A stretch of 64,000 nucleotides of DNA from a virus: IMG/VR virus record IMGVR_UViG_3300014720_000002; one strand, given 5' to 3'. Below, piece after piece: positions 54,677 through 55,069 of this stretch. Under the pieces are notes generated by a model, which ran no database searches, was not told the origin of the DNA, and saw only the letters and a list, made by a program, of their open reading frames with translations. Every line of letters begins with the position of its first letter. The stretch's first letter is position 1. The position numbers and the translations under genes were made by a program.

Positions 54677-54915
54677 CACAAAGATGCCGGCGGGAACAGG
54701 GCGTTCCCGCCGGCATCAGCCAGGAGGCAACGCTTGCTGAGGGCGTCGCCAGATTGAGCCGGGTATCCAGCCGACCCATCCTGTCGCGGAGCCTGATTGA
54801 GAAATCTCGACCAGCAAGAAATTTGTTGACGGCTGGTTACCGTCGGTCAATCTTGGCACGTCGAATCGATCTTTCCGCGCTCGTAGTGTGTCTCCTCACG
54901 CTGCGTTTGCCTTAA
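54673..54915 (+). CDS. Possible leader peptide (80 aa)
   Basis: ATGA-coupled to the dnaB stop, and its TAA lies inside the 5' arm of the downstream RNA structure. Codon usage is atypical and it contains the hairpin, so it may not be translated. Confidence 0.25.
   Translation: MTQRCRREQGVPAGISQEATLAEGVARLSRVSSRPILSRSLIEKSRPARNLLTAGYRRSILARRIDLSALVVCLLTLRLP
54683..54717. terminator. Perfect 15-bp hairpin; its T-rich tail is on the minus strand
   Basis: gatgccggcgggaac (54683-97) / gttcccgccggcatc (54703-17), 5-nt loop. On the minus strand it is followed by tttgtgt; on the plus strand by agcc. Confidence 0.55.
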
Positions 54916-55064
54916 CGAAATCATTGCCCAAAAGAAACACACGACTGCAACGACGTGATTTGAACGCGTCGGTTGGTCCGTGAGCCGTTTGGTCGTGTGT
55001 GTCCGCAGAAATGCGTTGGGCGTAATGATTTAGGCGTAGCGGAAGGAGCCAGCCGACGCGTTTA
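54899..55064 (+). promoter_or_regulatory. Structured cis-regulatory RNA candidate (nested stems plus pseudoknot or alternative stem)
   Basis: cgctgcg(54899-905)/cgtagcg(55035-41); aaatcattgccca(54918-30)/tgggc-gt-aatgattt(55017-31); acacacgac(54937-45)/gtcgtgtgt(54992-55000); cgca-GAAA-tgcg(55004-15); tgaacgcgtcggttgg(54961-76)/ccagccgacgcgttta(55049-64). Confidence 0.55.
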
Positions 55065-55069
55065 TTTTT

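Follow-up and report, generated by a model that had tools for sequence, protein, structure and literature searches.

A structured non-coding spacer between a DnaB-like helicase gene and a putative replication-initiation gene in a large uncultured phage

The locus and its genes

We analysed a 64,000-nt stretch of phage DNA (the window) and focused on the spacer between a gene for a DnaB-like replicative helicase and a gene for a 722-aa protein (Table 1). The genes around the spacer are all on the + strand and are densely packed, and the 393-nt spacer is one of only two sizeable non-coding gaps in the 64-kb window. The helicase is encoded on a contig of 194,028 nt; the phage is large and uncultured. 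The GC content of the spacer drops to 0.50-0.55, versus 0.626 across the window, and the cumulative GC skew does not turn at the spacer. We found no genes for tRNA or tmRNA in the window. A Shine-Dalgarno-like motif within 20 nt of the start is lacking in most genes of this phage, which suggests a host whose translation initiation is largely independent of Shine-Dalgarno sequences. The other true non-coding gap (37886-38254) has no sequence in common with the spacer that we studied; part of it (38069-38254) is the most structured stretch of the + strand (z = -3.9, rank 1 of 2059 in a sliding scan).

Table 1. Features at the locus, with positions in the window
Feature	Position	Strand	Basis
SF2 helicase gene	50295-51803	+	Pfam/PHROG annotation
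DnaB-like replicative helicase gene, 501 aa, upstream neighbour of the spacer	53171-54676	+	Pfam DnaB_C, KaiC-type ATPase, PHROG 19
Non-coding spacer, 393 nt, highly structured on both strands	54677-55069	+	
Perfect 15-bp G+C-rich hairpin (inverted repeat I1; stem 15-16 bp) with T-rich tail TTTGTGTCAT	54683-54717	-	
Domain I, a long hairpin with imperfect pairing (~29 bp split over six segments) and small hairpins at its apex	54742-54862	+	Helix list of the whole-spacer MFE
Domain II, three-way-junction core with two competing outer closures	54870-55047	+	RNAfold
H1, 7 bp with one G-U, cgctgcg / cgtagcg	54899-905 / 55035-41	+	Sequence
H2, 8 + 5 bp around a 2-nt bulge	54918-30 / 55017-31 (MFE: 54918-31 / 55016-31)	+	
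H3, perfect 9 bp, extendable to 54934-47 / 54990-55003	54937-45 / 54992-55000	+	
cgca-GAAA-tgcg hairpin	55004-15	+	
5' arm of the crossing complementarity (I3), within the apical 42-nt loop	54961-79	+	
3' arm of the crossing complementarity, -25 to -6 relative to the ATG	55045-64	+	
A/U-rich tract tttattttt and ATG start of the 722-aa gene	55061-55072	+	
722-aa gene, without Pfam or PHROG assignment	55070-57238	+	
Toprim primase gene	57449-58684	+	Pfam/PHROG annotation
Family-A DNA polymerase gene with UDG domain	58953-62231	+	Pfam/PHROG annotation

The spacer does not encode a protein. An open reading frame of 80 codons (54673-54915) starts at the stop of the helicase gene and stops 155 nt before the ATG at 55070, but its GC content at third codon positions (0.59) is below that of the neighbouring real genes (0.77-0.81). 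A search of 5.8 billion proteins gave no homologue of it, and neither Pfam nor PHROG gave a significant match. (The sole Pfam match, to DUF6380, was sub-threshold, with E = 0.041 and 14.2 bits.) We considered whether this frame might be a leader peptide and rejected the idea, as both a coding signature and homologues are absent. Two further open reading frames across the structured element are equally unsupported, and none of the three has any residual similarity to proteins.

The 722-aa protein was not assigned to any family at the default thresholds of Pfam and PHROG. There are weak matches to helix-turn-helix domains of the MarR, GntR, and Crp types at residues 99-135. The AF2 model (mean pLDDT of 68) starts with a winged helix that is predicted with confidence (residues ~8-174); a disordered linker (178-283) joins it to a helical C-terminal domain. 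Among the best structural matches was the primosome protein DnaB of Geobacillus (Z = 7.5, rmsd 2.5, 94 residues aligned). Other matches were to an MDR plasmid initiator (4pta, Z = 7.2), to the N-terminal domain of DnaD (Z = 6.0), and to many MarR, PadR, and TFE domains; all of these scores lie below the caution line of Z = 8, and all of the matches are to winged helices. The lists from Foldseek and VIA were taken up by matches to the N-terminal winged helix, and the protein atlas yielded no usable match. The N-terminal domain also shows sub-threshold likeness to DnaD, to the Bacillus-type DnaB, and to pSK41-RepA domains. Based on these hints from the fold of the N-terminal domain and on the conserved synteny with the helicase gene, the 722-aa protein is a putative replication-initiation or helicase-loading protein.

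Folding of the spacer

As RNA, the + strand of 54677-55090 is predicted to fold with -178.6 kcal/mol (z = -6.4) and its reverse strand with -164.6 kcal/mol (z = -5.3). For comparison, a control intergenic region from a related locus (L002, described below) has a z of just -0.4. The minimum free energy (MFE) structure of the whole spacer has three parts: the 15-bp hairpin, Domain I, and Domain II. A sequence-only reading of this DNA had described a structured element at 54899-55069. That stretch is indeed structured, but it is only the 3' half of a larger structured spacer, and 54685-54870 ranked second of 2059 for + strand structure in the sliding scan.

The 15-bp hairpin sits directly after the stop of the helicase gene. 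No other terminator-like site in the 60 kb that we scanned (4001-64000) is as strong, and this one is oriented leftward: a G+C-rich stem followed by a U run, as in an intrinsic terminator, is found on the minus strand only, while on the + strand AGCCAGG, not a T run, comes after the stem. The hairpin may end an antisense or non-coding transcript. There are no minus-strand genes between about 50052 and 62650, around this leftward site. Because the flanking genes are on the same strand and there is no + strand terminator between them, RNA from the + strand of the spacer is very likely made.

Within Domain II, all of the nested helices (H1, H2, and H3) and the GAAA hairpin that had been picked out by inspection were recovered at the same coordinates, and the pairing goes beyond chance. 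RNAfold gives -71.4 kcal/mol for the + strand of 54890-55075 (z = -3.5), and none of 200 shuffles was as good; the reverse strand gives -60.5 kcal/mol (z = -2.9). When we slid a 186-nt segment along the entire window and corrected the energies for GC content, the element came 20th among 2059 segments on the + strand and 239th among 2059 on the minus strand. Nearly all pairs in H2, H3, the GAAA hairpin, and a local hairpin in the apical loop (54952-57 / 54965-70) have a pair probability of at least 0.9, but the two outer pairs of H2 are weaker (P = 0.77 and 0.40). The outer closure, which the sequence-only reading had assigned to H1, is ambiguous. H1 is present (P ~0.49), but it competes with an alternative in which 54870-78 pairs with 55039-47 and 54882-90 / 54897-905 form a hairpin (P ~0.51).

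The spacer also contains repeats. A direct repeat of ~36 nt (54883-54918 and 54992-55028; D1, D3) gives 54934-45 two possible partners (D1, D3, I9, I11). The 9-mer CCAGCCGAC, with at most one mismatch, occurs four times in the spacer, at 54767, 54828, 54968, and 55049, as two inverted pairs. The expectation from its density in the window is ~0.4, but this motif was chosen post hoc and has 71 matches in the 64 kb. We also considered a direct repeat with 13 of 15 matching positions (54759-73 and 55080-94) as an insertion scar. We rejected this because such a repeat is expected about by chance, by our estimate, and because an in-frame stop precedes the upstream copy.

The apical loop of Domain II contains a segment that is complementary to the tail of the spacer. 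As first noticed by eye, this complementarity crosses the nested helices and ends 5 nt before the ATG at 55070. The two arms form 14 contiguous pairs (13 Watson-Crick pairs and one U-G), which can be extended to ~19, and the energy of the duplex is -31.9 to -34.8 kcal/mol. Shuffling the leader gave a mean of -21.8 kcal/mol (standard deviation 2.3), and 0 of 1000 shuffles were as good as the tail-leader duplex at -34.8 kcal/mol; in a genomic control, in which random 25-mers were paired with their own upstream 368 nt, 24 of 1000 reached -34.8 kcal/mol. In the MFE structure, the 5' arm is instead held by local hairpins (54952-57 / 54965-70 and 54971-74 / 54983-86). The first of these has P of at least 0.9 nearly throughout.

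The sequence-only reading had proposed four roles: a translational switch, a riboswitch-like element, a ribozyme, or a structure of an ssDNA origin. Could the loop and the tail act as a switch? The geometry that had been proposed for one exists. The nested MFE of 54865-55085 is -79.4 kcal/mol, and a purely nested alternative that contains the loop-tail helix is at -74.6 kcal/mol, or 4.8 kcal/mol above the MFE. If both arms are kept single-stranded, the rest of this region folds with -62.1 kcal/mol, to which the duplex of the arms adds -31.9 kcal/mol. On energy alone, a pseudoknotted state could compete in this model. The full crossing helix of 16-19 bp is nevertheless unlikely to coexist with the nested core, because joining a closed 42-nt loop to a downstream strand by a helix of this length would require threading of about 1.5 turns, which makes the full pseudoknot sterically doubtful. 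More plausible is that the loop and the tail pair in part, as a pseudoknot, or that they pair in an alternative conformer.

Six homologues have N-termini that match a start at the ATG at 55070. Ranked by how accessible its start region is in the nested ensemble, the gene comes 12th among 29 genes of the phage, in the middle of the range. The 3' arm includes a GGAG (55045-48), which is too distant from the ATG for a Shine-Dalgarno role. In both of the outer closures, the sequence GGAAGGAG (55041-48) is paired with an upstream CUCCU or UCUUUCC. We rejected sequestration of a Shine-Dalgarno sequence via GGAAGGAG, as it lies 21 nt from the ATG and genes of this phage mostly lack such motifs.

The G-U pairs and the GNRA-type loop had been taken to favour the + strand. 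This preference is real, as Domain II has 8 G-U pairs on the + strand versus 3 on the minus strand, and the G+T-rich + strand folds better as RNA by ~10-14 kcal/mol (by ~10 kcal/mol for the element itself). It is modest, however, and with DNA parameters both strands are alike (z = -4.3 and -4.4). The dyad symmetry is significant; the choice between RNA and DNA is beyond folding alone.

Relatives of the spacer and of its neighbours

The structure does not correspond to a known RNA family. With the covariance models of Rfam 15, which cover riboswitches, self-cleaving ribozymes, phage pRNA, GOLLD, ROOL, and leaders, there were no matches at the gathering score in the whole window, in agreement with the sequence-only reading, which had recognised no Rfam family. 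With E up to 10, the only matches in 54600-55150 were weak ones to the 15-bp hairpin (the best had 23.8 bits versus a threshold of 70). We rejected a VIPR guide-RNA array because the spacer lacks its 5-nt periodicity: per 60 nt, at most 5 of the 12 in-phase positions were a G-pyrimidine dinucleotide, which equals the window's 95th percentile. We also rejected a multi-copy MITE or a host repeat, as the spacer is single-copy among the genomes searched. Searches of the window, of the Limisphaerales MAG described below, and of 301 other genomes of the order Limisphaerales gave no second copy; BLAST of the spacer against collections of phages and plasmids gave no match; and the spacer does not have terminal inverted repeats. 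The structure is real, is statistically unusual, and lies outside the known Rfam RNA families.

Relatives of the neighbouring proteins are scarce. The family of the 722-aa protein has 16 representatives among 1.84 billion proteins, nearly all of them from Logan assemblies. Relatives of the helicase that are 81-84% identical are found on Logan and JGI contigs. Scans of IMG/VR with the 722-aa protein, its alignment, the helicase, the helicase alignment, and a DNA word gave no locus. BLAST of the 722-aa protein and of the primase against 50,697 deposited phage genomes found no relatives, and in the same genomes the helicase matched only Acinetobacter phages, at ~25% identity. A BLAST of the 722-aa protein against plasmids was likewise without a match.

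The comparison of the spacer rests on two loci, both from more distant relatives: scans of JGI metagenomes yielded only L001, and scans of GTDB genomes yielded only L002. L002 is a contig of a Limisphaerales MAG, and its helicase is 54% identical to that of the window. The stop of this helicase gene (at 11488) is followed by 15 nt and then by the ATG of a 593-aa member of the family, so the synteny is kept without the spacer. On L001, a JGI contig, the family member is 41% identical over the N-terminal domain. There, a 65-aa Xis/AlpA-like open reading frame (1695-1892) ends 10 nt before the ATG of the family member, and again the spacer is missing. This implies that the spacer is specific to the closer clade of the window.

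The layout in L001, with an open reading frame for a helix-turn-helix protein of the Xis/AlpA type before the family member, is typical of integrative elements, which implies that the 722-aa family is not confined to large phages. By eye, L002 also has a lookalike of a tRNA 3' end (T-arm, acceptor stem, and CCA) at ~6078-6109 on the minus strand, within a divergent intergenic region of 500 nt that directly precedes the replication module. ARAGORN did not identify a complete tRNA at this piece. It could be the remnant of an attachment site, in which case this relative could be integrated in a Verrucomicrobia genome.

A closer homologue of the 722-aa protein provides a hint about the 3' arm. For P0002 (75% identical), the called gene begins 11 codons early, reading MDISRRVSFCTM. 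The SRRV in this extension is the in-frame reading of the window's AGCCGACGCGTT (AGC CGA CGC GTT at 55051-62). This suggests, from one protein extension, that these 12 nt of the core of the 3' arm are largely conserved in P0002.

Possible roles of the spacer and comparison with known systems

Our favoured reading, though at low confidence, takes Domain II as the 3' domain of a long structured 5' leader, or of a segment between cistrons, in the + strand mRNA of the 722-aa gene, which it would gate in cis. In its favour are the structure beyond what is expected by chance, the non-coding status of the spacer, and the loop-tail conformer at 4.8 kcal/mol above the MFE. Furthermore, the 3' arm ends 5 nt before an ATG that is confirmed by homologues, the + strand folds better and has a GAAA tetraloop, and the SRRV of P0002 hints that the 3' arm is kept. 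There is also a precedent in IncI1 and IncB/O plasmids, whose rep leaders are under the control of pseudoknots and antisense RNAs, as summarised in PMC8053102. On the other hand, the family members in L001 and L002 do without the element (gaps of 10 nt and 15 nt), the strands are at parity with DNA parameters, the accessibility of the start is ordinary, and the full pseudoknot is sterically doubtful.

If Domain II does act as such a leader, then in the MFE state the loop segment would be held in its local hairpins, the A/U-rich landing site, which lacks a Shine-Dalgarno sequence, would be free, and the gene would be translated. If the loop segment captured the tail instead, either in a partial pseudoknot or in full after the core refolds, the region would be closed up to -6 and initiation would be reduced. 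The balance might be set by co-transcriptional folding, by ribosomes or RNA polymerase arriving from the helicase gene, or by the gene's own product. Other candidates are an antisense transcript that ends at the minus-strand terminator and cleavage of the long helices by RNase III.

The same symmetry could instead operate at the level of DNA, as a replication origin of the phage or as an operator or promoter region that is recognised by the winged-helix protein, with the dyads being protein-binding sites or extrudable hairpins rather than RNA helices. The location suits this explanation, inside a replication module that runs from the helicase gene to the DnaD-like winged-helix gene with the primase and the polymerase downstream, as do the GC dip (0.50-0.55), the equal z of the two strands as single-stranded DNA, and the direct repeat of ~36 nt. 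A lineage-specific insertion would also suit a movable origin module. The four copies of the CCAGCCGAC-like 9-mer in two inverted pairs, versus ~0.4 copies expected, would fit as well, except that the cluster was picked post hoc and the motif is common (71 matches in 64 kb). However, an iteron-like array of direct repeats is absent, the sole A+T-rich stretch is just 13 nt and lies immediately before the ATG, the cumulative GC skew is unchanged at the site, and the + strand RNA fold beats the minus-strand fold. We consider a DNA-level role to be unlikely. A separate non-coding RNA gene is another explanation; chiefly, this would be a leftward antisense RNA that ends at 54717-54683 and acts on the leader, as in plasmid copy control. 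The strongest terminator-like site of the 60 kb scanned does lie on the minus strand with no minus-strand gene nearby, the minus strand of the spacer is unusually structured (z = -5.3), and in IncI1 and IncB/O plasmids rep leaders are established targets of antisense RNAs, as PMC8053102 summarises. But we did not find a promoter-like site on the minus strand (the promoter type of the phage may differ), and the tail of the terminator is weak, with three T and then GTGT. Also, the terminator lies 180-390 nt from the element, so the RNA would be unusually long, and the minus-strand fold of the element itself is unremarkable (rank 239 of 2059). Such a gene seems quite unlikely to us.

Alternatively, the spacer might have no dedicated function and be an insertion specific to this lineage (for example, a gene that has decayed or the remains of a mobile element), whose hairpins would at most be a terminator or generic sites for the processing or stability of the mRNA. 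This would explain why the spacer is missing from L001 and L002, where the genes are nearly contiguous, why it is single-copy with no detectable relatives in the collections searched, and why the start region is ordinary in its accessibility. Yet a z of -6.4 is far from what decayed coding sequence would be expected to show (and the control intergenic region of L002 has z = -0.4), the three spanning open reading frames retain no similarity to proteins, terminal inverted repeats and extra copies are absent, and 393 nt of junk would be unusual in a genome that is otherwise almost gapless. We give this explanation a low probability too. Most speculative, and in our judgement very unlikely in its entirety, is a previously undescribed RNA switch in which the apical loop of the three-way-junction leader competes with local hairpins over the landing site of a DnaD-like initiator, with a leftward antisense RNA setting the balance. 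If this is true, a 194-kb phage of Verrucomicrobia-like hosts would have a copy-control circuit in the style of plasmids.

Structured mRNA leaders that govern translation or processing are known from well-studied phages: the leader of gene 32 of T4 has a pseudoknot, the leader of the N gene of lambda has an RNase III site, and the intergenic regions of T7 have RNase III hairpins. The spacer resembles these in having long imperfect helices or a potential pseudoknot in a leader or inter-cistronic position, followed by an unstructured A/U-rich initiation region. In contrast to these leaders, it has no sequence similarity to them and none of their trans factors were identified here; also, the R sites of T7 are smaller than the multi-branched domain of 180 nt in the spacer. 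At the DNA level, dyad-symmetric origin modules and single-strand initiation signals are known, such as ssiA and ssiB of RSF1010 and the G4-type ssi. Like these, the spacer is a non-coding and strongly dyad-symmetric segment in a cluster of replication genes and can fold on either DNA strand, but it lacks iterons, a sizeable A+T-rich unwinding element, and a change in GC skew.

By analogy, the closest established mechanism is the control of rep leaders in the IncI1 and IncB/O plasmids. In IncI1 (ColIb-P9) and IncB/O plasmids, a pseudoknot and an antisense RNA control the translation of repZ or repA (Asano and Mizobuchi 1998 and Praszkier and Pittard 2002, as cited in PMC8053102 and PMC10286972). 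The plasmid pseudoknot is short, activates translation, and needs a translated leader peptide that ends at the start of rep. In the phage spacer, the complementarity is much longer (16-19 bp) and the pairing is predicted, the only leader reading frame lacks a coding signature and ends 155 nt upstream, so there is no counterpart of the leader peptide, and no antisense promoter was found. There is also no relationship in sequence or in Rfam, and the replicon is a 194-kb phage. In both systems, the leader ahead of a replication gene is structured and has a hairpin loop with a segment complementary to the nucleotides immediately 5' of the start codon; an antisense transcript may be a further common feature, as hinted at here by the terminator on the opposite strand. 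The spacer is a well-defined candidate with exact helices, at present from a single sequence, in a lineage whose replication proteins have no close relatives among cultured phages. Should it work as a leader, it would add a new RNA motif that controls a replication gene, from a group of large environmental phages about which little is known, and it would show that plasmid-like RNA control of initiation operates in a large phage.
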